Source of the DNA: Eubacteriales bacterium
GTDB taxonomy: Bacteria; Bacillota; Clostridia; Oscillospirales; CAG-272
Length of the DNA stretch: 60,006 nucleotides
Direction: 5' to 3'
Assembly: GCA_045644125.1 (NCBI GenBank)
Contig: JAZRGJ010000224.1
Location: 1-60,006, forward strand
Shown here: positions 12,475-47,271 of the stretch, piece by piece
How positions within the stretch are numbered: the stretch's first letter is position 1
How the letters are laid out: every line of letters begins with the position of its first letter
Made by a program: the position numbers and the translations under genes
Notes under the pieces: generated by a model
What the model was told of the DNA's origin: nothing
Database searches by the model: none
What the model saw: only the letters and a program-made list of their open reading frames with translations

Positions 12475-14097
12475 TTATTCCAGCTCCAAGCTTCCGTCGC
12501 CCGTGATTTCGGTGTTTTCAAGGAGCTTCGTTCTTTTGAGCTTGATTTTGTAGCCGTACTTTTCGTTGTTGATAACTTTAATGAATTTCGGCGGCGCGTA
12601 GGGGCAAACGTTGGGTTTTCCGTCCTCGCCTATAGCGCCGAGGGTGGTTATGGCTTCGTCCTCAACCGAGCGATAGAAATAGGGAGAGTCGGGGTTATTT
12701 TCAAATTTCTGGAAGAAGTCAACCTCACGCGCGCCCTCGAAATTAAGGTTGTCTATGACGAAGTTCGGGAAGTGAATCTGATAGCCGAAATTCCAGTTTG
12801 GAGTTCTTATGAAAGTAAGCGACTGAAGGCAGCCGTCTTTGCGAATATCGACGAAGTGACAGTCCTTTATCGTGACTGTTCCCTCCCAGGTTGAGCCGTA
12901 GTCCTCACGGAGCTGAATGGGGCTTACGTAGTTGCGGAAGTAAATTTTCGTGTTTTCCATAAGAAATTCACCGCCGCCCGTCAGACGAATGACAGCCATA
13001 TCGCAATTCTGAACTTTCGCATTCCAAACGCCCTGGTGAGCGTCAAAACGGGTTAAGGCGCAGGAGTCGTAGACAAGATTCTTACAATAGCTTGAGCCCA
13101 TAACGCCCCAGCACTTATAGGTGTTCGGGAACTGATAGTGGTCGGGAAACTCGTCTGTGAAGAAGTCTTTCTGTCTGCAGTCCTTGAAAGTGATTCTGTT
13201 GGCGTAAGTTACGTCAATATCGTACGTTCCTTGGAGATAGTGAATTCTTGACATAAAGGCAACGTTTTTGATTAAAACGTTCGAGGTATACTGAACGGCA
13301 AGCACGCCGTTATACGAGTGGCCGATAAAGGGAACTCCGTCAACAAGCTCGCCCTTTTCCTTTTGCCCCGTGATTACGTGGTCAACGTCAAGGAGCGTGG
13401 TATTAGGTCTTGTAATTCTGATGCCTCGGTTTATGGAGTGATATTGGTCAACGAGGTTAACCTCGCTTGAGCGTGAGATTATGACGGCGTTTTTAACGCT
13501 TATCGGGCGCACGTCAAGGCGGTACGCTATAACGTCCGTCAGCTTTTCAAAGGAGAACATAAGGGGCGTGTCGGGAGAAACGTTTCCCTCTTCGTCAACC
13601 TCAATTATTTCCCTTTGGGGCGTGCCGGAGTTGCGATTTCCGCCGAAGCGGATAAATTTGCGCTCGTCGTCGTTTTTTAAGTAAAGAAGCGCAGGGAAGC
13701 CTAGCCCCGTGTCAATTTTTTTAAGGGTTTCCTTGTTAAGTCCGCCCTCAGCATTTATCTTATCAAGCTTTTCTTTTGAAAGATGCTCGGCGGGATAATC
13801 GCTCTCAACGGTGAAAATATAGACGTCGTGATTTCCGCGGGGTTCGGGGCGCCACGCTATTTCTCTATCGTCAAAAATGAAGATACAGCCACGCCAGTCG
13901 GTGTCGGTTTTTACAGAAATCGTTTCCGCAATTCCGTCAACTTCCATATTGCCGATAAGATAGCATTTTCCTGCCTCGGCAACTACGGGAAGTCCCATTT
14001 CGTTTGCGTATTCGTGCGCTTTTTTTATTGCAAAAAAGTCGTTCGTAACTCCGTCGCCAACAGCGCCGAAGTCCTTATATCTTACAAAGCTTTGCAT
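12475..14097 (-). CDS. Beta-helix (pectin-lyase-fold) protein, paralog A
   Basis: ATG at 14097 (GAGG RBS 9 nt upstream); the track start at 14112 is a TTG. N terminus YKDFGAVGDGVTNDFFAIKKAHEYA. Shares the CWGVMGSSYCKN, LTRFDAHQGV, IRLTGGGE, LQLREDYGSTWEGTVT, NWNFGY..FPNFVIDN and PYAPPKFIKVINN blocks with five other ORFs. Confidence 0.7.
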   Translation of the reverse strand: MQSFVRYKDFGAVGDGVTNDFFAIKKAHEYANEMGLPVVAEAGKCYLIGNMEVDGIAETISVKTDTDWRGCIFIFDDREIAWRPEPRGNHDVYIFTVESDYPAEHLSKEKLDKINAEGGLNKETLKKIDTGLGFPALLYLKNDDERKFIRFGGNRNSGTPQREIIEVDEEGNVSPDTPLMFSFEKLTDVIAYRLDVRPISVKNAVIISRSSEVNLVDQYHSINRGIRITRPNTTLLDVDHVITGQKEKGELVDGVPFIGHSYNGVLAVQYTSNVLIKNVAFMSRIHYLQGTYDIDVTYANRITFKDCRQKDFFTDEFPDHYQFPNTYKCWGVMGSSYCKNLVYDSCALTRFDAHQGVWNAKVQNCDMAVIRLTGGGEFLMENTKIYFRNYVSPIQLREDYGSTWEGTVTIKDCHFVDIRKDGCLQSLTFIRTPNWNFGYQIHFPNFVIDNLNFEGAREVDFFQKFENNPDSPYFYRSVEDEAITTLGAIGEDGKPNVCPYAPPKFIKVINNEKYGYKIKLKRTKLLENTEITGDGSLELE

Positions 14098-14108
14098 AAG
14101 CGTTAACC

Positions 14109-15752
14109 TCAAATTTCTGTGTACTTCGGATCTCCTTCGACCTTCTTCACACCCTCGATTTTCGTATCCTTGAAGAAAGGTACGTCGGGAATGGTAAGCT
14201 CGTAGCCGTTCTTTTCGTTATTGATAACCTTAATAAATTCCGGCGGCGTATAGGGGTTTACGTTAGGCTCGCCGTACGGATCGGGAGCGCCCGCTATCGC
14301 AAGGTTTTCGTCGTAGATAGAGCGGTAATATAAGCCGCGCGCGTTTTTCTTCATTGAAAAATCCGAGAACAAGTTTACAAGAGGCTTTGCGTTTTGAATT
14401 TTGAGGTTATCTATAACTACATTCGGGAAGTAGGTCACGTAGCCGTAATCGTGGTTTGCGCTTCTCGCAACGATAACGCAGGTAAGAGCGCTGTTGCCTT
14501 TAACGTCAACTATTTCGCAGTCCTTAAGCGTGAGAGTTCCGCGCCAAGTACAGCCGTAATCCTCACGGAGCTGGAGCGTATTTCCTATATCCCAGTTGTA
14601 AATTTTCGTGTTTTCAATCAGCATATCTCCGCCGCCCGTTAAGCGAATTGAACCTATCTCACAGTTTCTTATAATTCCGTTATATACGCCCTGGTGAGCA
14701 TCGAAGCGCGTTAGTTTGCAGTTGTCGTAAATCATATTTTTGCAGGAATTCGTTCCCGCAACGCCCCACCACTGGCCAAACGAGGGCATAAGGGGATATT
14801 CGGGATCGCCCTTGAAGAAATTGTACTGGTCGCAATTTTTGAATACTATCTTATTCGACATCCAGCCGCCGATTTCATAAGTTCCCTGAAGATAATGGGC
14901 GCGGGACTGGAAGGTGCAATCCTCAAACGTAACGTTATGCGTTAAGTGCATCTGGAAAAACGAGTTATAAGAGTGGCCGATAAAGGGTACGCCGTCAACC
15001 AGTGTTCCCTTTAAAATCTCGCCCGTGATTTTATGTCTTACGTTTGTGACGCAGACGTTAGGGCGGCAAAATCTTATTCCGCGGTTTATCGAATAATATT
15101 TATCCACTATATTTACTTGACTTGCGCGCGAGATAATATTCCAGTTTTTAATCGTGAGCGTAGGCAAGTCGATTCTGTACGCGGTAATGCCCGTTACGGT
15201 TTCAAAATCGTAAAGAACGTGAGTTTTCTCGTCGATATTTCCGTCCTTATCAACTACGATAAGCTCCTTTTGACTAGAGCCGGAATTTGCGTTGTAGCCG
15301 TAGCGCTTATAGTGCATCGTATTTGAGTTCGTTACGACGAGCATTGCGGGGAAGCCCAGCCCCGTGTCAATTTTTTGGGTAACGTTTCTGATAATTCCGC
15401 CCGCCGCGTTTATCGCGGCGATATGCTCCTCGTCAACGCTTACGGGTTTATAGGGGCTTTTTACCTCGAAGGTTGCGGTGTTGTGCCTTTTATTCGCGCC
15501 CTCGCGCCAAGATATATCGCTGTCGTCAACGATTAGCGTTGCGCCGCAAAGGTCAACGTCGGTCATAACGGGAATTGATTCCGCAACTCCGTCAATCTCC
15601 GTGTCGGTGATAAGATAGGTTTTTCCGGGAGTGCCCTTTACCGAGAGCCCCGCTTCATTCGCCGCAATATGCGCGCGCTTCATTGCAAAAAAGTCGTTTG
15701 TAACACCGTCACCGACGGCGCCGAAATCCTCGTAAGTTATAAAATCTTTCAT
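14109..15752 (-). CDS. Beta-helix (pectin-lyase-fold) protein, paralog B
   Basis: MKDFITYEDFGAVGDGVTNDFF at the N terminus, plus the same conserved blocks (LTRFDAHQGVYNG, IRLTGGGD, LQLREDYGCTWRGTLT, NPYTPPEFIKVINNEKNGYE). Its start overlaps the upstream stop (ATGA). Confidence 0.7.
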   Translation of the reverse strand: MKDFITYEDFGAVGDGVTNDFFAMKRAHIAANEAGLSVKGTPGKTYLITDTEIDGVAESIPVMTDVDLCGATLIVDDSDISWREGANKRHNTATFEVKSPYKPVSVDEEHIAAINAAGGIIRNVTQKIDTGLGFPAMLVVTNSNTMHYKRYGYNANSGSSQKELIVVDKDGNIDEKTHVLYDFETVTGITAYRIDLPTLTIKNWNIISRASQVNIVDKYYSINRGIRFCRPNVCVTNVRHKITGEILKGTLVDGVPFIGHSYNSFFQMHLTHNVTFEDCTFQSRAHYLQGTYEIGGWMSNKIVFKNCDQYNFFKGDPEYPLMPSFGQWWGVAGTNSCKNMIYDNCKLTRFDAHQGVYNGIIRNCEIGSIRLTGGGDMLIENTKIYNWDIGNTLQLREDYGCTWRGTLTLKDCEIVDVKGNSALTCVIVARSANHDYGYVTYFPNVVIDNLKIQNAKPLVNLFSDFSMKKNARGLYYRSIYDENLAIAGAPDPYGEPNVNPYTPPEFIKVINNEKNGYELTIPDVPFFKDTKIEGVKKVEGDPKYTEI

Positions 15753-17755
15753 TTATTAAGTCCTCCGTTTGCAACTATGTTATAGTAAAGTTTGTTGAGT
15801 TGGCTTCTCTTAAGCGCATCTCGAAGCTCACGCTCGGGTGTGTGAGCGGCGTAGGACACGCCGTAGGTATATTCGAGCATTTTTTCGCCGAGCGCCTTTA
15901 TTTTTTCGTAAAGCTCGCCCGTGCCCGCGCGATTTTCGTAAAGCGAGTCGTAGTAATCGAGGCAAAGCGCCATAAATCCGAAGACGTCAGCGCCGTAAAC
16001 AAGGCCTCTTATATCCTCGGAGAGCCTGTCTATAATAGGCGGCGTTTTCAGCATTTTCGCAACGTCGTGCGGATTTTTTGCGGTTTTTAAGATATCGTCA
16101 CCTGCGGAGAAAATTGCATCCTCGCGAATGATTCTGAATTCACGAAGCGCTTCCCTATATTCCTTAGCCATGCCGTAGGCTATCTCGGCTGCTCGGTTGC
16201 CAAGGTGGCTCTCCGTCATAAATGGCGTGTCGGGGCGCATTCCGTCCCAAGTCATAAGCGGATCAAGAACCGAGGTGAACCAACTGCGAAGCGACTGGCA
16301 AGGAGCGCCGGCTTTCTCAATTTTTTCATAAAGAGTGGCTACCCGTGTCGCATATTTCTCGTAAAGGTCGGAGAAATATTTGCGCTTAAGCGCATCAACG
16401 TCGGCGTGTCTATCGCGCGAGAGATTATAAAGTATAAAGTCGTTAAGGCGTCTTACGCCAAGCTCCGTTACCGAAAAGTGCATATACCCCATCTCAACGG
16501 CGCCGTTTTCAATATAATAAGGAACGTCCCGTTTCATTCTTTCCGTGAAAAGAAGCGGTAAGTCCTCAAGCTTTGAAACGTTATAGTATTCGTTTATCGC
16601 TATTTTGAAGCCCGTTTTGCACCAAGCCTCAAAACACTCGCGGTAATATGAATTTCTTTCGCACGGCTCGAAGATATTATGCTCATAGCAGCGTAAAATC
16701 GGGCAGAACATTCCGTAGTCGCCCGCCTCGATTAAGTTTTCGGGTACGGGATTCAGGGGTGCGGGCATAGTGTCCGTTCCCTCATATATATCAAACGTCA
16801 AAAGAGGATTTCTCTTTATTCTTCCCTCTTTGTGCGCTCGGTTAAGCGCCCCTCTTACGTGAGAGAGGAAGCGAAGCGTTATATCACTGCCGTTTCCGAG
16901 CTTTCTGCAAGACTCGCAGGCGCAGGATTTGCCCCAGGTGTCAAAGCCCGCAAGCTCGAGTATATCGGCGTTTTTCCATTCGTTTCGGCACTTCTCTATA
17001 ACCGCCTCGGAAAGAACGTCTAAAAGCTCCACCGAGCTTACGCAGAACTGAACATCAAGTGCGTTATCGGCGGTTATCTCACCCTCGCGCTTGCCGTACC
17101 AATCGCGGTGCGCGTCAAGGTAAAGTTCGCCATTTTCGGTGCGCTTTTTGGGATCTATAATACCGCCTAAAATGTGGCCGCCCTTTTTAAGAGTTGCGCC
17201 GAGCTTACGAAGAAGCGGAACTGAATAGGCGTAGGGCGCTGAAAGCGACATTCTGTTTCTCGCCATCCAAGCGGCAATTTTGAATGACTCTTTCATAAGT
17301 CCCTCGAAGTGATATCCGCGTCCTGTTTGCATATCGTAGGAATATTCTTGCTTTTCCGGAAGAGTGATATTTTCAAGCATGGGTACGAATTCGTCTTCCG
17401 GTGAATACCAACGGAAGCCGTTTGCTTCAAGAAGCTCGTATACAGCGTAAAGCGCCGCTTTTCTCGATACGCCCCTTAAATAGACGCGTTTTCCCTCACC
17501 CGTTATTGAGAATTCTTCACCAAAGTCGCCCTCGGACTCGATAAAGACGCTAAGGTCGCCGTCCTCCTTATCGGAAACGAAAGCCTCTAGCCCTGCTTTA
17601 TTAAGCCAAGTCACAAGTTCCTCTGCGGCATAGGAAAGCGTGCATCTTTCGGCGCGGAAATCATCGGTATCAAAATCAATTTTTTCCTCCTCGTGCGCCC
17701 AGATGGTATACTTCATCTCGGCTTTTTCATACGGCAGCTTTACGGAAATTTTCAT
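15749..17755 (-). CDS. Cytoplasmic glycosidase-like TIM-barrel protein (DUF4838-like; uncertain)
   Basis: 668 aa with no signal peptide. The N-terminal alpha/beta module followed by a barrel-like region carrying the Cys cluster WGKSCACESCRKLG is reminiscent of DUF4838/GH20-like proteins. Confidence 0.4.
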   Translation of the reverse strand: MKISVKLPYEKAEMKYTIWAHEEEKIDFDTDDFRAERCTLSYAAEELVTWLNKAGLEAFVSDKEDGDLSVFIESEGDFGEEFSITGEGKRVYLRGVSRKAALYAVYELLEANGFRWYSPEDEFVPMLENITLPEKQEYSYDMQTGRGYHFEGLMKESFKIAAWMARNRMSLSAPYAYSVPLLRKLGATLKKGGHILGGIIDPKKRTENGELYLDAHRDWYGKREGEITADNALDVQFCVSSVELLDVLSEAVIEKCRNEWKNADILELAGFDTWGKSCACESCRKLGNGSDITLRFLSHVRGALNRAHKEGRIKRNPLLTFDIYEGTDTMPAPLNPVPENLIEAGDYGMFCPILRCYEHNIFEPCERNSYYRECFEAWCKTGFKIAINEYYNVSKLEDLPLLFTERMKRDVPYYIENGAVEMGYMHFSVTELGVRRLNDFILYNLSRDRHADVDALKRKYFSDLYEKYATRVATLYEKIEKAGAPCQSLRSWFTSVLDPLMTWDGMRPDTPFMTESHLGNRAAEIAYGMAKEYREALREFRIIREDAIFSAGDDILKTAKNPHDVAKMLKTPPIIDRLSEDIRGLVYGADVFGFMALCLDYYDSLYENRAGTGELYEKIKALGEKMLEYTYGVSYAAHTPERELRDALKRSQLNKLYYNIVANGGLNK

Positions 17756-17867: not shown

Positions 17868-19466
17868 TCAAACTTTCTTCGCACCGATAATTTCGGTATC
17901 ACGGAAGAAAGGAACGTCGGGGACTATGACTTCGTAGCCGTTCTTTTCGTTATTGATAACCTTAATAAATTCGGGCGGCTGATAGGGGTTTACGTTCGGC
18001 TTGCCGTCCGTACAAATTGCGCCCTCAACTGCGATATTTTCGTCCTTTACGGAGCGGTAAAAATAATCGGAGCTTTGCTCGCTTCTTTCATAAACCAAAG
18101 GCAGCTCCTTGATGCAATCGGGAATTTTAACGTTATCTATTACGATATTCGGGAAATAGGTTTTATATCCGTAATTCCAGTTGGCGCTGTCCGCCATCAT
18201 AAACGCGCAGAAGAGTCCGCGCGCATCGTAAAACTCGGAATTTCTTACGGTAAGCGTACCGCGGAACGTTGAGCCGTAGTCCTCGCGGAGCTGAAGCGTC
18301 GTGTAGCCGGTTTGATATATCTTGCAGTTTTCGATGAGCATATCGCCGCCTCCGATAAGACGGATTGAGGATATTTCCGAATTTTTGATAGCTCCGTTCA
18401 CAACGCCCTTGTGAGCATCGTATCGCGTCATTTTACAGCCATCGTAAACCATATTTTTGCAAAAATTCGTTCCTGCAACGCCCCACCATCTGCCGAAAGA
18501 GGGGAACTCGGGATACTCGGGCAAGTGATGCGAGAAAAAGTTTCTCTGCTTGCAATTCTTTAATAAAAGATTATTGACCATGCGCGCGCCGAAATCGTAA
18601 GTGCCCTGAAGATAATAAGCTCTCGCTTGGAAAACGGAGTCTTCTACGGTGACGCCGTTTGCGTTTTCAATCTCGAGAAACTCATAGCAGTGACCGATGA
18701 AAGCCACACCGTTTTGAACTGCGCCTTTGTATATCTCGTTTATAACCTTATGCTCAATATTTCTTACAGTCACGTTTGAGCGCGAGACTCTTATGCCTCG
18801 GGAAATTCCGTGGCATTTATCAACGAGGTTTACCTGACTTGCCTTGGTGAGAACGAAAAGATTTTCAAAAACGAGCGGAGCTTCGTCTATGCGGTAAGCC
18901 TCAATTCTCGTCACCCTCTCGTAATCGAAAAGCCAGGGAGTTTTTTCGTCTATATTTCCCTCAGCGTCAACGAGTAAAAGCTCCTCTTTTGGAACACCCG
19001 AGTCCTCGTTTCCGCCGTAGCGGATATAAACCCTTTCATCGTCATTATAAACGATGAGCATTGCGGGAAAGCCGAGCCCCGTGTCAATTTTTCGGGTGCT
19101 TTTCGTTATTCCGCCCTCGGCATTTATCTTGTCTATATATTTTCGCTCTACGTCAATTTTCTCATAGGAAGATTCAACGGAAAAGATATGAGTGTTATGC
19201 CTTTTGTTTTTTCCAGGGCAATGGCAAACGTCCGTATCGTCTATAACCAAGCTTGAGCCGCAGAAATCCGTGTCCGTTTTAACAACGATGGAGCTTGCGA
19301 CTCCGTCAATCTCCGTTTCCGAAACGAGATAGGTTTTCTGAGCGCCTGCTCTTACGGGAAGCCCCATTTCGTTGGCGTACTCGTGCGCGCGCTTCATCGC
19401 GAAAAAGTCATTCGTAACTCCGTCACCAACTGCGCCGAAATCATCGTAGCATACAAATTCTTTCAT
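17868..19466 (-). CDS. Beta-helix (pectin-lyase-fold) protein, paralog C
   Basis: MKEFVCYDDFGAVGDGVTNDFFAMKRAHEYANEMGLPV at the N terminus. About three quarters identical to paralog D by eye over the first ~120 aa. All family blocks are present. Confidence 0.7.
   Translation of the reverse strand: MKEFVCYDDFGAVGDGVTNDFFAMKRAHEYANEMGLPVRAGAQKTYLVSETEIDGVASSIVVKTDTDFCGSSLVIDDTDVCHCPGKNKRHNTHIFSVESSYEKIDVERKYIDKINAEGGITKSTRKIDTGLGFPAMLIVYNDDERVYIRYGGNEDSGVPKEELLLVDAEGNIDEKTPWLFDYERVTRIEAYRIDEAPLVFENLFVLTKASQVNLVDKCHGISRGIRVSRSNVTVRNIEHKVINEIYKGAVQNGVAFIGHCYEFLEIENANGVTVEDSVFQARAYYLQGTYDFGARMVNNLLLKNCKQRNFFSHHLPEYPEFPSFGRWWGVAGTNFCKNMVYDGCKMTRYDAHKGVVNGAIKNSEISSIRLIGGGDMLIENCKIYQTGYTTLQLREDYGSTFRGTLTVRNSEFYDARGLFCAFMMADSANWNYGYKTYFPNIVIDNVKIPDCIKELPLVYERSEQSSDYFYRSVKDENIAVEGAICTDGKPNVNPYQPPEFIKVINNEKNGYEVIVPDVPFFRDTEIIGAKKV
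17904..17996 (-). repeat. 93-bp tract 100% identical to 24393-24485 (inside paralogs C and D)
   Basis: Base-by-base comparison shows GAAGAAAGGAACGTCGGGGACTATGAC...GATAGGGGTTTACGTT is identical in both genes, and identity drops on both sides. Paralog B shares a 41-bp core (14200-14240). Confidence 0.9.
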
Positions 19467-21422: not shown

Positions 21423-24214
21423 ATACATTCCTTTGTTTTTTCAGGTATTATAAGTGCGTAGCATTCAGGCGAAAACGTGCCGTGAACAAGGCGCTTTACG
21501 AGTTTTTCGGAAAAGCAAAGTGCTTCCTTAGCGTCAGGGCAGCCATTGTCGTAATGCTTGCCGAGGTCAAATCTTTCAATATCAAGTCTAAAGGGCTCGC
21601 CCTTTTCCATACCAAATCTTTCCTTGTCGATAAAAAGGGTGAAAAGATAAGCCCCGTCACCGAGATTTTCTTTCGTGAAGCGGTATTTCCGAAGCTCCGC
21701 ATCTGCTTCGCTCGGGTGGATAGAGAAAGCGCTCGATGACACCGAGAACGTGAAAAAGCTTCGCCTTGAAACCGCAAATTTGAACTCGTTTTTAGAAATC
21801 CAAATAGGTGCTAAGGGGTGAAACATTCTAAATTCCGGCCTAATTATTATGTAATCGTCAGAAAGGCTTTCGGCATAGATTGAAAGCTTATAGCAGTCGG
21901 AAAGTTCCTCTATCTTCACCTCGGTCAAGCCACGCTCACCCGAGCTTTTGACAAGCGGAAGCCTTTCGTCTTTGCCTATTTTATAAACGCGCTTGCTTCC
22001 CTCTCCCGCATAAAACGCAAGGGGCACTTCACCGTTTTTTATTCTAGCCTCAACTTCGGGAAATTCCGTTTCCAAAAGCTTTTGAAGCTTCTCTATTCTC
22101 CACCTTAATTTTTCGGGGAAAATTTTATGTCCGTGCGCCTCACTGTGATAGCCTATACGGTTATCGGCCTCGCATATAGGAATAAGCCTTTCGCTGTTTG
22201 AAATTTCCTCGTTTACGATTTCACGAAGCTCGGATAAAATTGACACGGGGTTACCCTTGCCGATGCCGAGAAGCCTGCGAAGATAATAAAATCTTATTAT
22301 ATTGTATCCGCTTCTAAATATAACGGACGTCGCGCGGGCAACGGAAATCTGTTCTTTTCTTTCCGCACATCCGTAATCCTCCAAGGAGTCAAGAGAAGAG
22401 ATGCCGCGCGTCCAATGGCGCACCATCAAAGAAACGAGCTCTTCTATTTCCTCGTGAGTATGTCCGTTGCACATACATTCGCCGAGGCGGTCACCGCCGA
22501 CGGCATCAACTGCAAGCCAGGTTGACGGCATTGAACGGTCGATGGGCTTCAAATGAAGCGGAGCTACGGGGCTGTCCTGCATTGGACCGAGCCATTCAAA
22601 CGAAACGCTTACGGGGAAATTGCGATAGCCCTCTTCAAAATCGAGCCACGCGCTTGCAACGCTTTTTGCATCCTTGCCCCAATAAATTCCCGCGAGCTTT
22701 TCAAGAAATTGCTCCTTCGTTTCTTCAAAGGACAAGAAGGCAAGTTCGCCCGCCGCTTTATTCATAAGGCAGGGATAATTGCCGAAAAACCAGCATTGCA
22801 TTACGCCCTCAATGGCGTTTTCATAAAAATATTTGTATTTATCGTAAAGTATTCCCGGCACGGAAACATAAGGAACGGTTGAGATCTCGTGCGAGGAGCA
22901 TACCTGTATTTTCGCGTAGGTTTTGCGCTTCAGCCTTTTATTAAGCTCTATAGTTTTTTCAAAAAGCTCACCGGGACCACTGTACGAAAGCCAATAATCG
23001 TACGAAACTCTTTTTTTACCGAGCTGCAAGGGGCGTCCGAAGTCCTCAAAATTTTGAAGGTGGATAACGCCCTCGTCACGCTCTTCGCACGACTCTTTTA
23101 GGTCCTCGTCACTCCAATTTCTCTGCTCATACGTCCAGCTAATATATTTTGCCTCGGGGTTTACCTCGCGCATTGCATCCGCTATCGTTTTTTCAACGAA
23201 CGCAAGCGCCTTTCCTATAGTTCCGAACTTCGCCTTGCACCTTTTGCACAACAGGTGGGGGCCGTTTGACGCGCATGTTGAAAGCGACTCACCGACAGTG
23301 AGGTTTATGTAACCCGCAAGATGCGTCACCTTAGTGAAAATTTCCTTCACCGCAAAGCGAAGATATTCTACGCTCTTTTCCTGCGAGGGACAAAGCATTC
23401 TAATGGGCGCACCCTCTGCGTCATCCATCAATTCGGGATGCTTCAAAAGGTGGGGATTATCACAGGATGATGCGGGATCAACCGCAAAAAGATATATACG
23501 TATGCCGTATTTTCTGCATTTTTCAACAACGGCATTAAGCTTGCTTATGCGCTTTTCGGCATCCGCGCCATATTCTTTGGCGTAGGGATTTTTCGCAAGA
23601 TAGCGAAGCGAAGCGCCAAGCCAAAGGACGTTTATGCCATCGTGCATAAGGCGGTTAAGATAGCCGTCGGGATAATAGTCAACGTCATCTATAAGCTCGT
23701 TTTCGTTCTCCTCAATTTCCGAATGGCTTGAGGGGGTGAAATAGCATCTTGAAATTCTATCTTTTATAAAAGGCTTTCTTGAAATTTCGCCAAGAGGAAG
23801 AAAGCTTCCCGAGCGGCGCTTCATCTCGTCCTCAATAAAAACAAGAGCGCGGCGAACGCCCTCGGTGTCGCCCGAAATAACGGTGATGCCCTCTTCGTTC
23901 ACTCTAAGCGTGTACGCCTCGAAGCAAGCCAAAGGCTTTTTAAGAAAGCGCAAATAAAATCCGCCGTACGCCTTTTTTATCCCCACGGACTCCATAAATG
24001 ATAAAAAATCCTCGTACGAGGTTTTAAGAAGTCCCTCTTCGTCGGGGAACGAAAAGTCAAGCGAAAGCGAGCTTATAAAAACTTCGCCCGTCTTTTTCTC
24101 TCTTTGATTCCAAAGTGGCGGCTTTTCCGAGTGAAAAGGCAAAGAGAGGTCCTTAGCGAAAGTAATTTCCGGCAGTTTATCACAAAACTCATCGCGCAAC
24201 TGAAAATCAATCAT
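21419..24214 (-). CDS. Large cytoplasmic protein of unknown family (glycosidase-like TIM barrel suspected)
   Basis: 931 aa with no signal peptide. The segment YYPDGYLNRLMHDGINVLWLGASLRYL...YGIRIYLFAVDP looks like beta/alpha-barrel strands. Cys cluster STCASNGPHLLCKRCKAKFG. AAGAGG RBS. Confidence 0.35.
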   Translation of the reverse strand: MIDFQLRDEFCDKLPEITFAKDLSLPFHSEKPPLWNQREKKTGEVFISSLSLDFSFPDEEGLLKTSYEDFLSFMESVGIKKAYGGFYLRFLKKPLACFEAYTLRVNEEGITVISGDTEGVRRALVFIEDEMKRRSGSFLPLGEISRKPFIKDRISRCYFTPSSHSEIEENENELIDDVDYYPDGYLNRLMHDGINVLWLGASLRYLAKNPYAKEYGADAEKRISKLNAVVEKCRKYGIRIYLFAVDPASSCDNPHLLKHPELMDDAEGAPIRMLCPSQEKSVEYLRFAVKEIFTKVTHLAGYINLTVGESLSTCASNGPHLLCKRCKAKFGTIGKALAFVEKTIADAMREVNPEAKYISWTYEQRNWSDEDLKESCEERDEGVIHLQNFEDFGRPLQLGKKRVSYDYWLSYSGPGELFEKTIELNKRLKRKTYAKIQVCSSHEISTVPYVSVPGILYDKYKYFYENAIEGVMQCWFFGNYPCLMNKAAGELAFLSFEETKEQFLEKLAGIYWGKDAKSVASAWLDFEEGYRNFPVSVSFEWLGPMQDSPVAPLHLKPIDRSMPSTWLAVDAVGGDRLGECMCNGHTHEEIEELVSLMVRHWTRGISSLDSLEDYGCAERKEQISVARATSVIFRSGYNIIRFYYLRRLLGIGKGNPVSILSELREIVNEEISNSERLIPICEADNRIGYHSEAHGHKIFPEKLRWRIEKLQKLLETEFPEVEARIKNGEVPLAFYAGEGSKRVYKIGKDERLPLVKSSGERGLTEVKIEELSDCYKLSIYAESLSDDYIIIRPEFRMFHPLAPIWISKNEFKFAVSRRSFFTFSVSSSAFSIHPSEADAELRKYRFTKENLGDGAYLFTLFIDKERFGMEKGEPFRLDIERFDLGKHYDNGCPDAKEALCFSEKLVKRLVHGTFSPECYALIIPEKTKECI

Positions 24215-24356: not shown

Positions 24357-25967
24357 TTAGCGCTTTTTCGCGCCTTCTATGAGCGTGTCCTTGAAGAAAG
24401 GAACGTCGGGGACTATGACTTCGTAGCCGTTCTTTTCGTTATTGATAACCTTAATAAATTCGGGCGGCTGATAGGGGTTTACGTTAGGCTTGCCGTCAGC
24501 GCATATAGCGCCCTCGACCGCAATATTTTCGTCACGCACGGAGCGGTAGAAATAGCCGTACTTGTTTTCCTTCATTTCGAATTCAAAAAGCAAAGGAAGC
24601 TCTTTAAGCGTGTCGGGTATCTTAACGTTGTCTATAACTATATTCGGGAAATAGGTTTTATAGCCGTAGTTGTGGTTTGACGAGTGCATCATCATAAGCG
24701 AATTGAATGCGCCTAAGGTATCGTAAAACTCACTGTTTCTTATCGTGAGAGTTCCGCGCCAGGTGCAACCGTAGTCCTCTCTTAATTGAAGCGTCGTGTA
24801 AGTGTTCTGATAAATTTTGCAGTTTTCAATGAGCATATCGCCCGCGCCGATAAGACGGATAGAGGAAATCTCACAGTTTTTAATAGCTCCGTTGACAACG
24901 CCGCAGTGCGCGTCGTAGCGTGTCAGCTTGCAACCGTCGAAAACCATATTCTTGCAGCCGTTCGTGCCCGAAACGCCCCACCATTTGCCAAACGAGGGAA
25001 GCTCGGGGCGGTCGTAGTTGTAATGCCCGAAGAAATTCCACTGCGAGCAATTCTTAAGCAAAAGGTCGTTAACCATATAAGCCGAGAAGTCGTACGTTCC
25101 CTGAAGATAGTAAGCTCGAGCTTGGAGAACGCTGTCAATGATTTGCACGTTATGCGCGCAGCTTATCGAAAGGAAGTTGTAGCTGTGACCGACGAAGGGC
25201 ACGCCGTCCTTAAGCGCTCCTCTGTAAATCTCGTTTATAACCTTGTGCATAACATTTTTAACCACGGTATTTGAGCGAAGAATCTGAACGCCTCGTCTTA
25301 TTGAATGATATTCGTCCACAAGATTAACCTGACTTGCCTTTGTGAGAACGAAGAGATTTTCAAAAACGAGCTCGCTTGCGTCTATTCTGCGCGCCTCGAT
25401 TTTCGTCACCTTTTCGTAATTAAAGAGCCAGGAGGTTTTTTCGTCTATATTTCCCTCCGCGTCAACGACGATAAGCTCCGCCTTGGGATTTCCGTCGTTA
25501 GCGTTTCCGCCGTAGCGGATATACACCTTTTCGTCGTCGTTATATACTATGAGATGCGCGGGATAGCCGAGTCCCAAATCAAGCTTTTTCGTTTCGCCTA
25601 TTTTAATTCCGCCATCTGCGTTTATTTTATCAATATATTTTTTGTCAACCTCAACCATCTCGTACTCGCTTCTGACGGAGAAAACGGGGATGTTGTGGCG
25701 CTTGTTCTGGTCCTCGCACCACGAAATTTCCGTGTCGTCTATAACCACGGTTGAGCCGCAGAAGTTCGTGCTTGTCTTTACGACTATAGGGCTTGCAACG
25801 CCGTCAATTTCCGTTTCCGAAACGAGATAGGTTTTCTGCGCGCCCGCTCTTACGGGAAGTCCCTTTTCGTTGGCGTACTCGTGAGCCGCCTTTATAGCAA
25901 AAAAGTCGTTGGTAACACCGTCGCCAACGGCGCCGAAATCGTCATAGCATACAAATCTTTCATCCAT
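24357..25967 (-). CDS. Beta-helix (pectin-lyase-fold) protein, paralog D
   Basis: MDERFVCYDDFGAVGDGVTNDFFAIKAAHEYANEKGLPV at the N terminus, with all family blocks present. It is the first gene of the ~13.7-kb minus-strand gene string 25967->12260. Confidence 0.7.
   Translation of the reverse strand: MDERFVCYDDFGAVGDGVTNDFFAIKAAHEYANEKGLPVRAGAQKTYLVSETEIDGVASPIVVKTSTNFCGSTVVIDDTEISWCEDQNKRHNIPVFSVRSEYEMVEVDKKYIDKINADGGIKIGETKKLDLGLGYPAHLIVYNDDEKVYIRYGGNANDGNPKAELIVVDAEGNIDEKTSWLFNYEKVTKIEARRIDASELVFENLFVLTKASQVNLVDEYHSIRRGVQILRSNTVVKNVMHKVINEIYRGALKDGVPFVGHSYNFLSISCAHNVQIIDSVLQARAYYLQGTYDFSAYMVNDLLLKNCSQWNFFGHYNYDRPELPSFGKWWGVSGTNGCKNMVFDGCKLTRYDAHCGVVNGAIKNCEISSIRLIGAGDMLIENCKIYQNTYTTLQLREDYGCTWRGTLTIRNSEFYDTLGAFNSLMMMHSSNHNYGYKTYFPNIVIDNVKIPDTLKELPLLFEFEMKENKYGYFYRSVRDENIAVEGAICADGKPNVNPYQPPEFIKVINNEKNGYEVIVPDVPFFKDTLIEGAKKR
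24393..24485 (-). repeat. 93-bp tract 100% identical to 17904-17996
   Basis: See the partner entry. The tract encodes the conserved ...NPYQPPEFIKVINNEKNGYEVIVPDVPFF... segment. Confidence 0.9.
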
Positions 25968-26151
25968 TTTAAAAACCTCGCATAGTAAAAAGAAAATTTA
26001 AAGAAGCGGAAGCCGACTTTTAAAAGCGCCGCGCTCCTTCATTCCATTTTACTACGAGGGCCAAGAAAAATCAATAGAAAATCGCCACTTTGTAAATTTA
26101 TTTTTATATATTTTGAGTTTCGCTTTTGTTTACAAAATATTTAAAATCGTG

Positions 26152-26160
26152 TGTTATAAT
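26152..26160 (+). promoter_or_regulatory. Candidate extended -10 element (TGTTATAAT) for the paralog E/F operon
   Basis: TGTTATAAT at 26152-26160, with a second identical 9-mer at 26225-26233, in the 297-bp AT-rich divergent spacer. There is no good -35. Confidence 0.3.
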
Positions 26161-26264
26161 AGGTTTACAGCACTTTTTGCAATGTTTTTTGTGTAAAATG
26201 TAATTTTCTTACCACTTCCTTATTTGTTATAATTGTTATATATAAGATTTTAGGAGAAAGCTAT

Positions 26265-28217
26265 ATGGAACGTTCAGAAATTTTCGAGGCTGCAAAAAAG
26301 CGCGGCTACGTTCTCTACTCAGACTTCGGCGCTAAGGGCGACGGAATTCACGAGGACCACGAGGCTATAAGAGCGGCACACGAATTTGCCAACGAAAACG
26401 GCTTTCCCGTTAAGGCTGATTTGCAAGCGACCTATTACGTAGAAAAGAAAAGCGCCGCTGCCATTATAAAAACCGACACGGACTTCCGAGGCGCTACCTT
26501 TATTATAGACGACACCCGCTTAACGAGCGCCGATACCTGCTACACCTTTATGATAGACTCCGACGAGGAAAGCTTTTTCTTCGAGCGTGGAAGCGACGAG
26601 GTTAAAGCCTTCAACGAAATGAAGGACGAGGACGGCATAGTTATCAAGGGCATAAACCACGGCGACGAAAGAACGAGAAAATTCCCTCTCGCCCTCGGCT
26701 ACGAGGCTATGATAAGAGTTTTCGACGACGACTCCATTGCCTACAACCGCTGGGGCTACGTTGACTCCGTCGGAAGCGCTCAGGAGGAATGTTTCCTCGT
26801 TGACAAGGACGGAAATATCGATCCCTCCACCACAGCTCTTATAGATTACCGCAAAGTCACGCGTCTTCTCATACATAAAACCGAGATAAAGCCCATTACC
26901 GTAAAGAACGCAAGATTTATCGGCCTCGCAAGCCAGATGAACACAATTCTTACGGGCGGAAACCTGTCAACCGGAATCAGAGTTGCCCGTCCGCATACTA
27001 CCGTAGAAAATATCGAGCATATCATCAAAAACGAGCGCCCTCGCTCCTCTTGCGCAAGATATAATGCGGAAACGGATTTTTGGGACGACGTTACGGGCGA
27101 GGGATTTTTCTTCAGCGTAGATACGAACAAGATTTATAAAAACGGCGAGATTTACGAGGGAAAAGACGTTCTTCGCTTCCGCGGCCACACCTACACGGGC
27201 TTCATCGCTATGGGCGGAACGTACGACGTACTTATAAAGGACTGCGTTTTCCAGGCGAGAACCTATTACAACTCGGGCACGTACGACATCAGCTGCTACA
27301 ATTCAACTCACGTCGTTTTTGAAAATTGCGTACAGTCAAACTATTACGATCCGCGCCCGCGCTTCCAGGTTTACGGTGAGTCAAGCTACCCGAACCTTTC
27401 GCTTTGCTGGGGCGTTATGGGCTCGAACTACTGTAAAAATATCGACTTTATAAACTGCATACTGACTCGTTTCGACGCTCATAGGGGTGTTTACAACGGC
27501 AGAATTATCGGCGGCAAAATGGGCGTTCTCCGTCTTATCGGCGGCGGCGAATTTTTGCTTGACGGAGTTGAGATAGCGAGGGGAAACGGCGCTCCCTTGC
27601 AGCTTCGATCTGACTACGGAGGAACGTTTAACGGAACTCTCACGGTGAGAAACTGCACTTTCAAGCACCCTGCCGAATCCTCTACGGGACAAAAGCTTCC
27701 GATTGAGGCGCTTATCGATGCGCCGACGGCAAACTGGAACAACGGCTACGGAAACTATTTCCCGAACGTCGTTATAGATAACATTAAGATAGACACCGTC
27801 CAAACGGAGCTGCCTCTCGTTGCAAATTCGAAAACGGAATACAATCCGGAGGGCACGCATTACCCGATAAGAAGCTTGCTTGAACCGGTGCATGATCCCG
27901 ACGCTCCTTTCGACGTTTACTACGAAACGCGCGACAAGGAAGTTTATAAAAACCACCCCGAAAGATTCAAATTCCTTGATGGCAAGGACGTAACGCCCGA
28001 AGTTATCGAGCATAAGAACAAGACCTATACACTTATTTTCCGCGGCGTTAAAAACATAAACCCCTATCACCCCCCGAAATTCATTGAAATCAAGAATATG
28101 AAGGGCGCCCACAACGCAAACGGCGAGCCCCTCACACTTTCGCTTTTCGATTGCGATTTCTTTAAAAACACCGAAATATTTGACTGCGACTCAGTTCTTA
28201 AACGTACAGAGTCGTAA
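26265..28217 (+). CDS. Beta-helix (pectin-lyase-fold) protein, paralog E (long subfamily)
   Basis: 650 aa with no signal peptide. YSDFGAKGDGIHEDHEAIRAAHEFANENGFPV, CWGVMGSNYCKN, LTRFDAHRGVYNG, LRLIGGGE, LQLRSDYGGTFNGTLT, NWNNGYGNYFPNVVIDN and NPYHPPKFIEIKN are present. Confidence 0.7.
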   Translation: MERSEIFEAAKKRGYVLYSDFGAKGDGIHEDHEAIRAAHEFANENGFPVKADLQATYYVEKKSAAAIIKTDTDFRGATFIIDDTRLTSADTCYTFMIDSDEESFFFERGSDEVKAFNEMKDEDGIVIKGINHGDERTRKFPLALGYEAMIRVFDDDSIAYNRWGYVDSVGSAQEECFLVDKDGNIDPSTTALIDYRKVTRLLIHKTEIKPITVKNARFIGLASQMNTILTGGNLSTGIRVARPHTTVENIEHIIKNERPRSSCARYNAETDFWDDVTGEGFFFSVDTNKIYKNGEIYEGKDVLRFRGHTYTGFIAMGGTYDVLIKDCVFQARTYYNSGTYDISCYNSTHVVFENCVQSNYYDPRPRFQVYGESSYPNLSLCWGVMGSNYCKNIDFINCILTRFDAHRGVYNGRIIGGKMGVLRLIGGGEFLLDGVEIARGNGAPLQLRSDYGGTFNGTLTVRNCTFKHPAESSTGQKLPIEALIDAPTANWNNGYGNYFPNVVIDNIKIDTVQTELPLVANSKTEYNPEGTHYPIRSLLEPVHDPDAPFDVYYETRDKEVYKNHPERFKFLDGKDVTPEVIEHKNKTYTLIFRGVKNINPYHPPKFIEIKNMKGAHNANGEPLTLSLFDCDFFKNTEIFDCDSVLKRTES

Positions 28218-28231
28218 GGAAAGGAAAGATT

Positions 28232-31186
28232 ATGAAAAACATCAAGAGTATTTTAACCTTTATTCTTGCGCTGACACTCGTTTTCGCGCTTTTTGCGTGC
28301 GGAAAGAATCAACAGCCACCGGAGGGCGGCGGCACGGGCGAGGCTTGCTCTCATACCGACGACAACTCCGACTGCAAGTGCGATAAATGCAAAAAAGCTC
28401 TTTCGCACGAGGACGAGGATGAGGACGGCGTCTGCGACGTTTGCGACGAGGAGCTTGACACGGGCTCTGAAACCAAAGACGGCATAGTTCTTATCGAGGA
28501 CGAGGAGATACTTTTCCAAATCGTTCTCGGAGGCGACGTTGACCTTGAGACGAGAATCTATATTGACGGCATATCCGACATTGTTGACGAGCTCGGCGGC
28601 GAGCTTGTCGTAGTTGAAGACACAAATGGCGACGAGGCTGACGTTGAAATACTTATAGGCACCGTAACGAGCCGTGGCAAAGACTATGAATACAAGAAAA
28701 CCGACCTTGGCGTTAAGGGCTACGTTATCACGGCTTTTGACGAGAGCAAAATCGGCATCGTGGGCGGCTCTGAAAAGACGCTTCTTGAAACCGTAACGAA
28801 GTTTTTCGAGGATGAGCTCGAGCTTGACAAGAGAGCGGATGAGCTTAAGGACTACACCTTTACCGAGGACTCCGAGGTGCTCGAAATTCAGGACGACTAC
28901 AAAATCACCTCGCTTACCGTTAACGGCAACGAAATAAAAGATTACGTTATAACCAAGAACTCCGAATACAACGAAACCAACGTTGCGGCAAAGCGCTTGC
29001 AGCAAACTTTCTATGAAAAAGCGGGCATTTGGCTTGAAATAGTTGAAGAATCAAAGGCGAGCGGCAATCTTATCAAGGTCTCTTGCGTTGGCAAGGACGA
29101 AGCGGGCAACAAGGGCTTCCGCGCGACTCTTGACGGCGACGACCTCGTTTTCGAGTGCGGCTACGCTAACAAATACCCCGAAATGATAGAGGAATTTATC
29201 AATAAAACCTTCTTTATGGTAACGGGCGAGGTTGAACTTGGCGAATACACCCCCGAAAGCTACGCAAACAGAGTAAGCTATAAAGAATTCGGCGCTGTCG
29301 GCGACGGCGTAACGGACGATAGCGCAGCTATCCGCGCGGCTCACGAATTTGCTAACAAAGGCGGCCAGCTCGTCGTTGCGGAATCCAATAAAACCTATTA
29401 TATAGCAGGCCCTTGCGACACGATTTCCGTTAAGACTAACGTTGACTGGGGCGGATGCAAGTTCATTTTTGACGATACGATAGTTACCGGCTCAACGACA
29501 GCGCCCATATTCTCTATCGATCCCGATTTACCCAACTCGACGATTTCAAGCGGAGATTTCTTCAAGGCTCTCAACGCAGACCCCGACGGCGACGGCATAG
29601 TTATCTACGGTATTAACCACGGCGACGGACAGACGACAAAGCTCGGTAACGGCCTTGGCTACGCGGCGCTTCTTACAATCTACGACACGAGCTCCAATAT
29701 GTATATCCGCTGGGGCTACGTTGACGGACAGAATCACACCCAAGAAGAAATAGTTCTTATTGACAAGGACGGTAATATCGATCCCTCAACGCCTTTCCTT
29801 ATCGACTTTGAAAAGGTTACGAAAATAAAGGTTCAAAACCTTGAAAACATAGATCCCATCACTATCAAAAACGCAACCATCACAACCCGCGCGACGAAGA
29901 TTAACAAGGCGGGCAACATCACGCGTAACATCGTGGTTAACCGCGCTTACACAACCCTTGACGGTATCAAGCACGTAGTTGAGGGCGAATACGACGGCGT
30001 TAACATCGGTATGCTTGCGGGAGAAGAAAGAACCCCCTTGAAGCTTGACGAAAAGCTCGGATACTACGTTCCCGCTGACGGATATACCGCAGACCGCTAC
30101 AATATTTACGACTCAAACGGCAATAAATACACCGGAAAAGACGTAGTTCTTATGTCGGGCGTTACCTACACGGGTATTATAAACGTTTCGTTCTCCGAGG
30201 GAGTAACCGTAAAGAACTGCGAATTCCAAGCAAAAATGTACTACGGAAGCGGTACTTACGACTTAAACCTTTACAATGCGAATAACGTAAAGTTTATTGA
30301 CTGTATTCAGACGAACTTCTTCGACGAAACGAGAGGCGCAACCACCCCCAACCTTACCAGATGCTGGGGCGTTATGGGCTCAAACTACTGTAAGAATCTC
30401 TCGTTCAACGGCTGCCGTCTTACCCGTTTTGACGCTCACTGCGGCGTTTACAACGCAGAAATGATTGACTGTGAGGTCGCTCTTATAAGACTTATCGGCG
30501 GCGGTGATTTCACGCTTGACGGCACGACCTTCTACTTCCACCAGAGCGGCGCTCCCATACAGCTTCGTGAGGACTACGGCGCAACATTCAACGGCACGGT
30601 AACCATTAAGGACTGTACCATAAATTCACTCGGTGAAATGACAGGCCTCGTTTCCGCTCCTACCGCTAACTGGGATAACGGATACGACACTTATTTCCCG
30701 AACCTCGTTATCGATAATCTTCAGCTCGGAAACGCGCAGACGACCTTTAATATTCTTGCGAAAGAAACGGAAAGCTACTCGAAGTCGAACCTCTATCCTT
30801 CAAGATGCCCCGCTCTTGAAGACGTTCACGACCCCGACGCTCTTTTCACCGTTTATTACACGACGGCAAACCCGAATCTCGTTACCGAGAAGCCCGAAAA
30901 ATTCCCCTATCTTGACGGCTTTAAAAAGGTTTCAAAAGATCCCATATCACTTAAAAACGGCGAATACACCGTTGTTGATAACGGCGACGACACCTACACG
31001 GTAGTTGCTAAAGGCGCTAAGAACGTAAGACCTTACAACGCTCCCGAATTTATCGAAATCAAGAATATGACGAATTTCAAAAACGGAAAAGGCCAGTCGG
31101 TTACACTCCAGCTTTACAACTGTCCTTTCTTCGACGAAACCGAAATTATTGACGCAGATAAGGTGCTTAAGAAAGTTAAGCCCTGA
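28232..31186 (+). CDS. Surface lipoprotein with a Cys/Asp-rich linker, two alpha/beta modules and a beta-helix paralog F domain
   Basis: Lipobox LFACGK. CSHTDDNSDCKCDKCKKAL and HEDEDEDGVCDVCDEEL motifs follow. From about aa 345 (YKEFGAVGDGVTDDSAAIRAAHEFANKGG) to the end it is collinear with paralog E. Confidence 0.75.
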   Translation: MKNIKSILTFILALTLVFALFACGKNQQPPEGGGTGEACSHTDDNSDCKCDKCKKALSHEDEDEDGVCDVCDEELDTGSETKDGIVLIEDEEILFQIVLGGDVDLETRIYIDGISDIVDELGGELVVVEDTNGDEADVEILIGTVTSRGKDYEYKKTDLGVKGYVITAFDESKIGIVGGSEKTLLETVTKFFEDELELDKRADELKDYTFTEDSEVLEIQDDYKITSLTVNGNEIKDYVITKNSEYNETNVAAKRLQQTFYEKAGIWLEIVEESKASGNLIKVSCVGKDEAGNKGFRATLDGDDLVFECGYANKYPEMIEEFINKTFFMVTGEVELGEYTPESYANRVSYKEFGAVGDGVTDDSAAIRAAHEFANKGGQLVVAESNKTYYIAGPCDTISVKTNVDWGGCKFIFDDTIVTGSTTAPIFSIDPDLPNSTISSGDFFKALNADPDGDGIVIYGINHGDGQTTKLGNGLGYAALLTIYDTSSNMYIRWGYVDGQNHTQEEIVLIDKDGNIDPSTPFLIDFEKVTKIKVQNLENIDPITIKNATITTRATKINKAGNITRNIVVNRAYTTLDGIKHVVEGEYDGVNIGMLAGEERTPLKLDEKLGYYVPADGYTADRYNIYDSNGNKYTGKDVVLMSGVTYTGIINVSFSEGVTVKNCEFQAKMYYGSGTYDLNLYNANNVKFIDCIQTNFFDETRGATTPNLTRCWGVMGSNYCKNLSFNGCRLTRFDAHCGVYNAEMIDCEVALIRLIGGGDFTLDGTTFYFHQSGAPIQLREDYGATFNGTVTIKDCTINSLGEMTGLVSAPTANWDNGYDTYFPNLVIDNLQLGNAQTTFNILAKETESYSKSNLYPSRCPALEDVHDPDALFTVYYTTANPNLVTEKPEKFPYLDGFKKVSKDPISLKNGEYTVVDNGDDTYTVVAKGAKNVRPYNAPEFIEIKNMTNFKNGKGQSVTLQLYNCPFFDETEIIDADKVLKKVKP

Positions 31187-47267: not shown

Positions 47268-47271
47268 AAAA

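Follow-up and report, generated by a model that had tools for sequence, protein, structure and literature searches.

Six chromosomal β-helix paralogs in a Clostridia genome are cellular relatives of phage depolymerases and probable polysaccharide lyases

What does a bacterial chromosome do with six copies of a β-helix protein, five of them without a secretion signal? The question is raised by a 60,006-nucleotide stretch of contig JAZRGJ010000224.1 (assembly GCA_045644125.1, Eubacteriales bacterium, Clostridia), referred to below as the window. Six related open reading frames (ORFs) lie between its positions 12475 and 31186. The original prediction, made from the sequence alone, described them as a possibly undescribed intracellular glycosidase or lyase family at the core of a glycan-type locus. 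Our analysis indicated that the family is a cellular branch of a known enzyme class, that of the phage depolymerases, and not an orphan fold. The six proteins probably cleave acidic polysaccharides, judging from their match to the depolymerase domain of phage tail fibres and tailspikes. The paralogs and their motifs are located as follows.

12475-14097, minus strand: paralog A, 540 amino acids (aa), leaderless β-helix protein, defined by the ORF map, translation and MAFFT alignment
14050-14070, 13219-13230, 13036-13050 and 12895-12912, minus strand: FGAVGDG cap, GTYD, RFDAH and LREDYG motifs of paralog A
14109-15752, minus strand: paralog B, 547 aa, leaderless; RFDAH at 14694-14708, LREDYG at 14553-14570
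17868-19466, minus strand: paralog C, 532 aa, leaderless; the member used for the structure model
18594-18605, 18411-18425 and 18273-18290, minus strand: GTYD, RYDAH and LREDYG motifs of paralog C, holding the candidate triad Y290, H352 and R394
24357-25967, minus strand: paralog D, 536 aa, leaderless, 75% identical to C; opens the minus-strand gene string
26265-28217, plus strand: paralog E, 650 aa, leaderless, E/F subfamily with insertions; RFDAH at 27468-27482, LRSDYG at 27603-27620
28232-31186, plus strand: paralog F, 984 aa; lipoprotein leader (aa 1-23), Cys/Asp-rich repeats, an extension of ~320 aa and the β-helix
~29264-31186, plus strand: β-helix domain of F, from ~aa 345

The six ORFs are collinear over the whole domain of ~530 aa, as the original prediction had described, with ~100 invariant columns in the MAFFT alignment and identities of 35-75%. 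Their similarity is far above chance and they are true paralogs. In the alignment of all six, the other paralogs are 36-48% identical to A. Over the core domain, identity is 75% between C and D, 58% between B and C, 47-49% between A and B-D, 47% between E and F, and 35-40% between E/F and A-D. The family hidden Markov model (HMM) detects exactly these six members in the window. All of the motif blocks listed earlier were recovered, some of them slightly altered: IRLIGAGD in D, NH(D/N)YGY in place of NW in B and D, and RPYNAPEFIEIKN in F. The E/F subfamily had been described as carrying an extra insert of ~60 aa. An insertion is indeed present, but E and F carry several, one of ~40-50 aa after the HxxxxE block and two further ones toward the C-terminus. 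The first of these is also found in many 570-aa homologs.

The absence of a secretion signal from A-E was upheld. A-E are maximal ORFs in which the conserved DFGA(V/K)GDG cap begins at residues 10-21, and a signal peptide is therefore impossible. The longest ORF of A spans 12475-14112, with a TTG start 5 codons upstream of the start used here. F begins with MKNIKSILTFILALTLVFALFAC, a lipoprotein-type leader (…LVFALFAC), and its architecture recurs in ~40 homologs. Residues ~38-75 of F (~28343-28456 in the window), following the lipobox, form a Cys/Asp-rich repeat of the form C-x-H-x-D-x-N-x-D-G-x-C-D-x-C. The same repeat follows the lipobox in dozens of lipoprotein homologs, and that of homolog P0123 gives a weak Pfam match to the Notch LNR domain. 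This match suggests a small module that may bind calcium or another metal.

The curated Pfam and NCBIfam models do not recognize the paralogs. In the Pfam scan, Pect-lyase_RHGA_epim (PF12708) and Beta_helix (PF13229) were all below threshold (best scores of 14-20 bits, cutoffs of 27 and 25.9), and the NCBIfam scan of the paralogs returned no match. None of the 1,881 relatives recovered in a homolog search carries a Pfam domain or is informatively named. The PHROGs scan assigned all paralogs to tail-fibre families, with E values down to 5e-31 (for A). An AlphaFold2 model of C, computed from a 65-sequence family alignment, forms a single right-handed β-helix (pLDDT 95.2, pTM 0.93). Foldseek found 90 matches to this model in the PDB at E<=0.001; those inspected among the top 50 are all β-helix proteins. 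The model thus places the family in the pectin-lyase-fold (right-handed parallel β-helix) superfamily, the fold that had been proposed for it.

The closest structures are phage tailspikes. The top PDB match is the Klebsiella tailspike K64-ORF41 (8X8M; E 4.6e-16, query TM score (TMq) 0.66), followed by the Pseudomonas phi297 and LKA1 tailspikes, Acinetobacter AP22 gp54 and the K1 lyase (TMq 0.32-0.39). Among viral models, the SPO1-type tail fibre of CampHawk is best (TMq 0.73), then the tail fibre of Anoxybacillus phage A403 and the K64 depolymerase of K64-1. Sequence searches point to the same proteins. With C as the query, tblastn found SPO1-like tail fibres, the A403 tail fibre and Bacillus cereus phi29-like tailspikes at 23-27% identity over ~83% of C. 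The family HMM matches phi18 gp096 (E 6e-61, aa 127-556), A403 (4e-32) and K64-ORF41 (1e-15). In hhalign, family positions 8-458 align with K64-ORF41 272-698 (probability 96.2%, E 2.3e-9, 380 columns). The family and the catalytic, receptor-binding domain of phage tail fibres and tailspikes descend from a common ancestor, with homology that extends over the full β-helix.

These relatives differ from the window proteins in architecture. K64-ORF41 of phage SH-KP152410 has the W-G-V, R-x-D-x-H and R-x-D-(Y/F)-G blocks in common with the family. It is, however, a 1017-aa homotrimeric virion tailspike with an N-terminal anchor and C-terminal domains, whereas the window proteins are mostly single domains of ~540 aa, encoded on a chromosome in six paralogs, five of them leaderless. 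A-E have no extra domains, and the virion-anchor and trimerization domains of K64-ORF41 are absent from them. The closest annotated sequence relatives are the SPO1-type fibres (SPO1 gp18.1, CampHawk, phi18 gp096) and the A403 fibre, at 25-27% identity. These retain the GTY, WG, K, RxDxH and RxDYG residues of the family, but unlike the window proteins they are components of the virion, ~760-1030 aa long and equipped with additional domains. The K1 lyase of Klebsiella phage NTUH-K2044-K1-1 (7W1C/7W1D; Tyr311/His373/Arg397) belongs to the same fold class; the spacing of its catalytic residues differs from that in the family and its profile similarity is undetectable. Proteins of PF12708/PF13229 and of glycoside hydrolase (GH) families GH28, GH55 and GH110 have the right-handed β-helix and a GAxGDGxTDD-type N-terminal cap in common with the family. 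The sequence matches to GH55 and GH28 are restricted to this cap, and TM scores to the GH folds do not exceed 0.3.

The two conserved blocks that had earlier been left without an assignment, TRFDAH and LQLREDYG, do correspond to a catalytic signature. K64-ORF41 is a β-elimination lyase with the catalytic residues Tyr528, His574 and Arg628 (PMC11652154, citing Huang et al. 2024), and the translated gene has Y, H and R at these positions. In three independent alignments, His574 falls on the H of T-R-(F/Y)-D-A-H and Arg628 on the R of L-R-(E/S)-D-Y-G. Neither of the equivalent residues varies among the 65 family sequences or the six paralogs. Around the two positions K64-ORF41 reads R-V-D-M-H and R-G-D-F-G, with flanking residues in common with the family, and the W-G-V block is shared as well. 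Beyond these two, the Tyr of GTYD, the W-G pair and K337 are invariant together with RxDxH and RxDxG in Clostridia, in four other phyla and in the phi18 and A403 phage proteins.

The third residue of the triad is plausibly the invariant Tyr of GTYD, one helix turn upstream. MAFFT L-INS-i and E-INS-i align Tyr528 with it (Y290 of C), whereas G-INS-i does not. The spacing agrees with this match: the Y-to-W and W-to-H distances are 21 and 24 in A403, and 22 and 24 in K64. In the cellular proteins, a loop whose length varies is inserted between the Tyr and the Trp. Mutants of the K1 lyase and the structure of a product complex support a syn-elimination that requires no metal; in it, Tyr acts as the base, His acts as the acid and Arg neutralizes the uronate carboxylate (PMC8822698). 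From this mechanism and the aligned residues, we infer K1-lyase-type chemistry for the family, with Y290, H352 and R394 as the candidate triad. Natural fusions of ~900 aa in Algoriphagus provide supporting context for a lyase. In these, an alginate-lyase domain (PF05426) is N-terminal to the family domain; Pfam found a match in two of the proteins scanned.

L050, 8756-11458: Algoriphagus alginate-lyase fusion, PF05426 E 7e-83
L064, 8756-11455: Algoriphagus alginate-lyase fusion
L083, 8765-11461: Algoriphagus alginate-lyase fusion

How far had such a family been described? Its standing as an undescribed family holds in that no curated model matches at threshold and its homologs are named "hypothetical"; it does not hold for the domain, which is homologous over its whole length to characterized phage depolymerases. 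The fold, catalytic motif and enzyme class are already known from these phages, and the family is therefore not a new kind of system. Literature searches, which covered new β-helix polysaccharide lyase families and the placement of K64-ORF41 in CAZy, gave no description of the cellular family. The cellular family, its leaderless form, the stable multi-paralog arrays and a conserved secreted clade appear to be undescribed.

The family is widespread in cellular genomes. We counted ~1,070 family clusters (50% identity, E<=1e-30) among 1.84 billion representatives. Metagenome-assembled genomes of gut Clostridia, many from ruminants (yak, goat, sheep, roe deer), carry tandem arrays of 2-8 copies per locus. 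The 122 Clostridia copies in these loci include 62 in which a leader would not fit, and ~40 with an F-type N-terminal extension that are lipoproteins or bear a signal. One homolog, P0152 (1630 aa), combines Flg_new repeats, BspA-type leucine-rich repeat (LRR_5) modules and the family β-helix domain in a single chain.

Members outside Clostridia occur in single copy in Bacteroidota, Planctomycetota, Verrucomicrobiota and Lentisphaerota. This clade comprises >5,800 proteins, named "hypothetical" or "pectate lyase superfamily" and without conserved neighbours. Its members are 51-82% identical to each other across phyla and 29-35% identical to the window paralogs. All of those sampled have a hydrophobic, signal-peptide-like N-terminus. 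The strong conservation across phyla suggests one widespread substrate or horizontal transfer. An intracellular location, as proposed for the family, is thus consistent with A-E but not with the family in general, in which about one third of the Clostridia copies are lipoproteins or carry a leader and copies in other phyla have signal-peptide-like N-termini.

L047, L065, L067, L071, L058, L039 and L056: loci of the non-Clostridia clade, family member at ~9800-11460 in most

The arrays were also compared between strains. In a tree, A, B, C, D, E and F each have their own ortholog in L084 and L085, the loci of the closest relatives of the window organism, which means that the duplications took place long ago and were retained. 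The interval from BspA/ThiT to infB is variable between these strains (window 9000-31300 compared with L084 and L085). Three tandem D-type copies are found in L084 and L085, compared with one in the window. Arrays in relatives of the window organism share two housekeeping anchors, ThiT-TPK-Met-gamma-lyase-HAD-BspA and rimP-nusA-ylxR-L7Ae-infB.

The paralogs in the window are interleaved with genes for several other proteins, which fit the earlier description and are listed below with the one transporter of the window.

9055-12159, plus strand: weakly GH106-like protein (α-L-rhamnosidase type), 1034 aa, leaderless, convergent with the minus-strand gene string
12260-12463, minus strand: Cro/C1-type helix-turn-helix (HTH) protein, 67 aa (PF13443 HTH_26, E 2e-14); ends the minus-strand string
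15749-17755, minus strand: DUF4838 protein, 668 aa, leaderless (PF16126, E 2.7e-12); kept in L084 and L085
19563-21428, minus strand: GH36-like protein (α-galactosidase type), 621 aa, leaderless (Melibiase, E 1.8e-39; PDB α-galactosidases, E 1e-31)
21419-24214, minus strand: 931-aa protein without Pfam match (AlphaFold2 model, pLDDT 89.8)
140-1018: ThiT thiamine transporter, the lone multi-transmembrane transporter-like protein in the window

No transmembrane or leader segment was predicted in the GH36-like, DUF4838, 931-aa, GH106-like or HTH proteins. DUF4838 is a GH20-related catalytic domain of GH163 and GH185, of which one subfamily is cytoplasmic (PMC10570127). PDB sequence searches with the 668-aa and 931-aa proteins gave nothing useful. 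The model of the 931-aa protein matched in Foldseek the GH138 rhamnogalacturonan II α-galacturonidase BP0997 (6hzf; E 8e-19, TMq 0.47-0.50) and a GH67 α-glucuronidase (1mqq; E 1.5e-16). It belongs to a family of >1,200 Clostridia proteins that have no Pfam model and are named only "hypothetical"; given the modelled fold, this may be an unclassified GH family. The GH106-like assignment is based on a Pfam match (E 2e-12), an NCBIfam match far under the cutoff (E 1e-13) and PDB entry 6q2f (E 0.002). The GH138/GH67-like fold and the GH36-like and GH106-like neighbours together suggest an acidic heteroglycan with uronic acid, rhamnose, and either galactose or N-acetylhexosamine. Its source could be plant pectic material, a gum or a microbial polysaccharide.

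This gene set is not a property of the family. The DUF4838, GH106-like and HTH genes are common only to the closest relatives, L084 and L085. The GH36-like and 931-aa genes form a pair that is an insertion or deletion between strains, present in the window and L085 and absent from L084. In L084 the GH106-like gene is apparently split into ORFs of 609 and 401 aa, and a 66-aa HTH_26 gene is located at the position equivalent to the HTH gene of the window. We searched for conserved neighbours by all-versus-all gene clustering in 83 loci and by Pfam enrichment of 80 non-Clostridia and 74 Clostridia neighbours. The search returned housekeeping synteny only. Carbohydrate-active enzymes (CAZymes) are neighbours in the window, L084 and L085, and are not found beside members in ~80 other loci. 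The glycan locus is thus a feature of the clade and not of the family, which revises the original prediction. The family as a marker of glycan-utilization loci was rejected, as there is no enrichment of CAZyme, uronate or importer genes beside its members.

We propose that the six proteins are cellular, monomeric Tyr/His/Arg lyases of the phage-depolymerase class, that F acts on the outside of the cell, at its surface, while A-E operate in the cytoplasm alongside the leaderless GH-like enzymes, and that the importer is encoded elsewhere. Taken as a whole, this proposal has about an even chance of being correct. The proteins would be metal-independent poly- or oligosaccharide lyases, cleaving by β-elimination next to uronic acid in a groove lined by the invariant K337, R348, D350, H352, R394 and D396 (paralog C numbering). 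Types A, B, C/D, E and F would be old duplicates kept across strains, and would probably differ in glycan specificity, like phage depolymerases. The lipoprotein F would depolymerize an acidic heteroglycan at the cell surface. Its oligosaccharides, taken up by a sugar importer presumably encoded elsewhere in the genome, would be trimmed in the cytoplasm by the leaderless A-E. Their partners would be the uronidase-type GH138/GH67-like protein, the GH36-like α-galactosidase, the DUF4838 protein (GH163/GH185-type) and the GH106-like rhamnosidase. The GH138/GH67-like fold of the 931-aa neighbour is consistent with a uronic-acid substrate.

A number of observations weigh against this proposal. Some concern the chemistry. 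The identity between the family and K64-ORF41 is only ~15%, and hhalign found no profile signal between the family and the K1 lyase. HMMER and hhalign place Tyr528 in a variable column. In addition, the closest phage relatives recognize wall teichoic acid of Gram-positive bacteria, which contains no uronic acid; the SPO1-type tail fibres are implicated in the recognition of its glucosylated form. Other observations concern the pathway. The 60-kb window encodes no ATP-binding cassette, phosphotransferase system or major facilitator superfamily sugar transporter, as had been noted, and no GH88/GH105 unsaturated-uronyl hydrolase or KduI/KduD. It does not amount to a glycan-utilization cluster of CAZymes, sugar transporter and sensor or regulator; the 67-aa HTH protein is the sole regulator candidate. 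Across the ~80 other loci, neighbour clustering and the two Pfam enrichment scans did not turn up a CAZyme, a sugar importer, GH88/GH105 or KduI/KduD as a conserved partner either. Most arrays in other genomes stand alone among housekeeping genes, and in relatives of the window organism they often have nothing else alongside. The missing unsaturated-uronate pathway, the missing transporter and the stand-alone arrays are the main weaknesses of a catabolic model. Finally, an endo-type β-helix with a long groove is an unusual choice for trimming oligosaccharides in the cytoplasm.

The same groove could support a different chemistry. The invariant D350 and D396 are two helix turns apart on one face and could be the acid/base pair of an inverting β-helix glycosidase, with His and Arg only binding the substrate. 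Both Asp residues are invariant in all members including the phage homologs, many β-helix depolymerases are hydrolases (table in PMC11652154), and GH110, GH28 and GH87 are among the fold matches of the C model. All locus neighbours are GH-like and genes of an unsaturated-uronate pathway are not found nearby, which also favours hydrolysis. However, the TM scores to GH110, GH28 and GH87 are only 0.23-0.30, while the K64-lyase and SPO1-type domains reach 0.66-0.73. The PDB sequence matches to GH55 (5m5z) and GH28 (7b8b) cover only the N-terminal cap, residues 4-61. Moreover, it is at the positions aligned with the lyase residues defined by mutation that the family is invariant. We consider hydrolysis unlikely. 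An assignment to GH110 or GH28 in particular was rejected on the low TM scores and the cap-only sequence matches. Uronate C5-epimerases, or bifunctional epimerase/lyases, of the AlgE/AlgG type perform the same C5 proton abstraction on a β-helix, and AlgE4, AlgE6 and an alginate epimerase/lyase are among the sequence and fold matches. The R-F-D-A-H block resembles the G-F-D-P-H motif of epimerases, whose catalytic region is YG(F/I)DPH(D/E). The AlgE sequence matches, however, cover only the cap (residues 8-71), and the fold TMq is 0.22-0.32. The T-R-(F/Y)-D-A-H of the family retains D-x-H but not the Tyr, which in AlgE is presumably located 5 residues before the His, at a position occupied by Thr in the family. 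No polymer-synthesis genes are found nearby, and an epimerase function is very improbable.

The site of action can also be read differently. The proteins could form a diversified arsenal against cell-surface glycopolymers (capsule, extracellular polysaccharides (EPS), teichoic or teichuronic acids) of other bacteria or of the producer, with leaderless copies freed by lysis or by unrecognized export. Such a role is a matter of location and does not conflict with lyase chemistry. The proteins most closely related to the family are those with which phages bind surface glycans of bacteria as receptors, lipoprotein arrays of 5-7 copies are found in L059 and L073, and P0152 fuses the domain to Flg_new and BspA-LRR surface modules. 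Arrays adjoin BspA-type surface genes in the window, L002, L006 and L084. The variable copy number between strains and the stand-alone arrays, among housekeeping genes with neither transporter nor downstream pathway, fit as well. Against this, half of the Clostridia copies counted above (62/122) have no room for an N-terminal signal, and in the window clade leaderless GH-like genes lie between the members of the arrays, as would suit the processing of glycans inside the cell. We regard such an arsenal as possible but doubtful. Its more specific form, in which uncultured gut Clostridia, many from ruminants, adopted the phage depolymerase module as a fast-duplicating arsenal (up to 8 copies per array, in lipoprotein, BspA-fused and leaderless forms) against the capsules, EPS or wall glycopolymers of neighbours, for foraging or interference, is still more speculative. 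Lastly, the proteins could be non-catalytic glycan-binding or structural proteins, or decaying fragments of phage tailspikes. Enzymatic activity is mostly unproven for the phage tail-fibre homologs, and we found none reported in the literature for the SPO1-type and A403 fibres (e.g. SPO1 gp18.1). However, none of the six copies is disrupted or has lost an invariant polar residue of the groove, orthologs persist across strains and the family is widespread in cellular genomes; this explanation has very little chance of being right. The genes are chromosomal, each paralog has its ortholog and the array is located between blocks of housekeeping genes, outside the prophage of the window (~43-53 kb), and the proteins are therefore not tailspike remnants, an outcome that the original prediction had named as fatal to its claim of novelty. 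The intact reading frames and the lack of anchor domains are further grounds on which the remnant reading was rejected.

If the lyase assignment is correct, a sizeable cellular family, now without a Pfam or NCBIfam model, would be added to the annotation of carbohydrate-active enzymes. It would also connect the capsule depolymerases of phages with a pool of bacterial genes with which specificities could be exchanged, and new depolymerase specificities for use in glycan analysis or against capsules could be drawn from this pool. The retention of leaderless copies in stable multi-paralog arrays prompts the question of their site of action. The secreted clade, 51-82% identical across four phyla, points to a widespread acidic glycan as its substrate. 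If the arsenal of gut Clostridia were real, it would be the bacterial counterpart of multi-depolymerase phages, rather than an ordinary system for plant-glycan catabolism.

Two intergenic regions of the locus contain candidate regulatory sequences.

12199-12228: inverted repeat (perfect 13-bp stem, 4-nt loop) bordered by runs of A and T, located where the HTH and GH106-like genes converge
25968-26264: AT-rich divergent intergenic region between D and E, with two TGTTATAAT extended -10-like sites on the plus strand at 26152 and 26225, which are consensus matches only

The inverted repeat is likely a bidirectional terminator, judging from its stem and flanking runs. Beyond this one terminator, the search of the intergenic regions for repeats and operators found only AT-rich repeats at chance level.

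Several other genes in the window were noted. A 1591-aa surface protein (3983-8758, minus strand) with Flg_new repeats and ~10 BspA-type LRR_5 units directly adjoins the locus, and a BspA-type surface gene next to a family array recurs in L002, L006 and L084. The prophage-like block at 42900-53000 encodes a large terminase (43284-44657), an SU10-type portal (44654-46405) and an adaptor (49419-50261), and has no β-helix family member. It also contains a 908-aa BspA-type LRR_5 protein (50252-52978), which could be a prophage receptor-binding protein. A 970-aa protein (36711-39623, minus strand) adjoins rimP; it has no Pfam match and one C-terminal hydrophobic segment. Its homologs are found at the equivalent position in L004 and L005, and also in L019 and L044.

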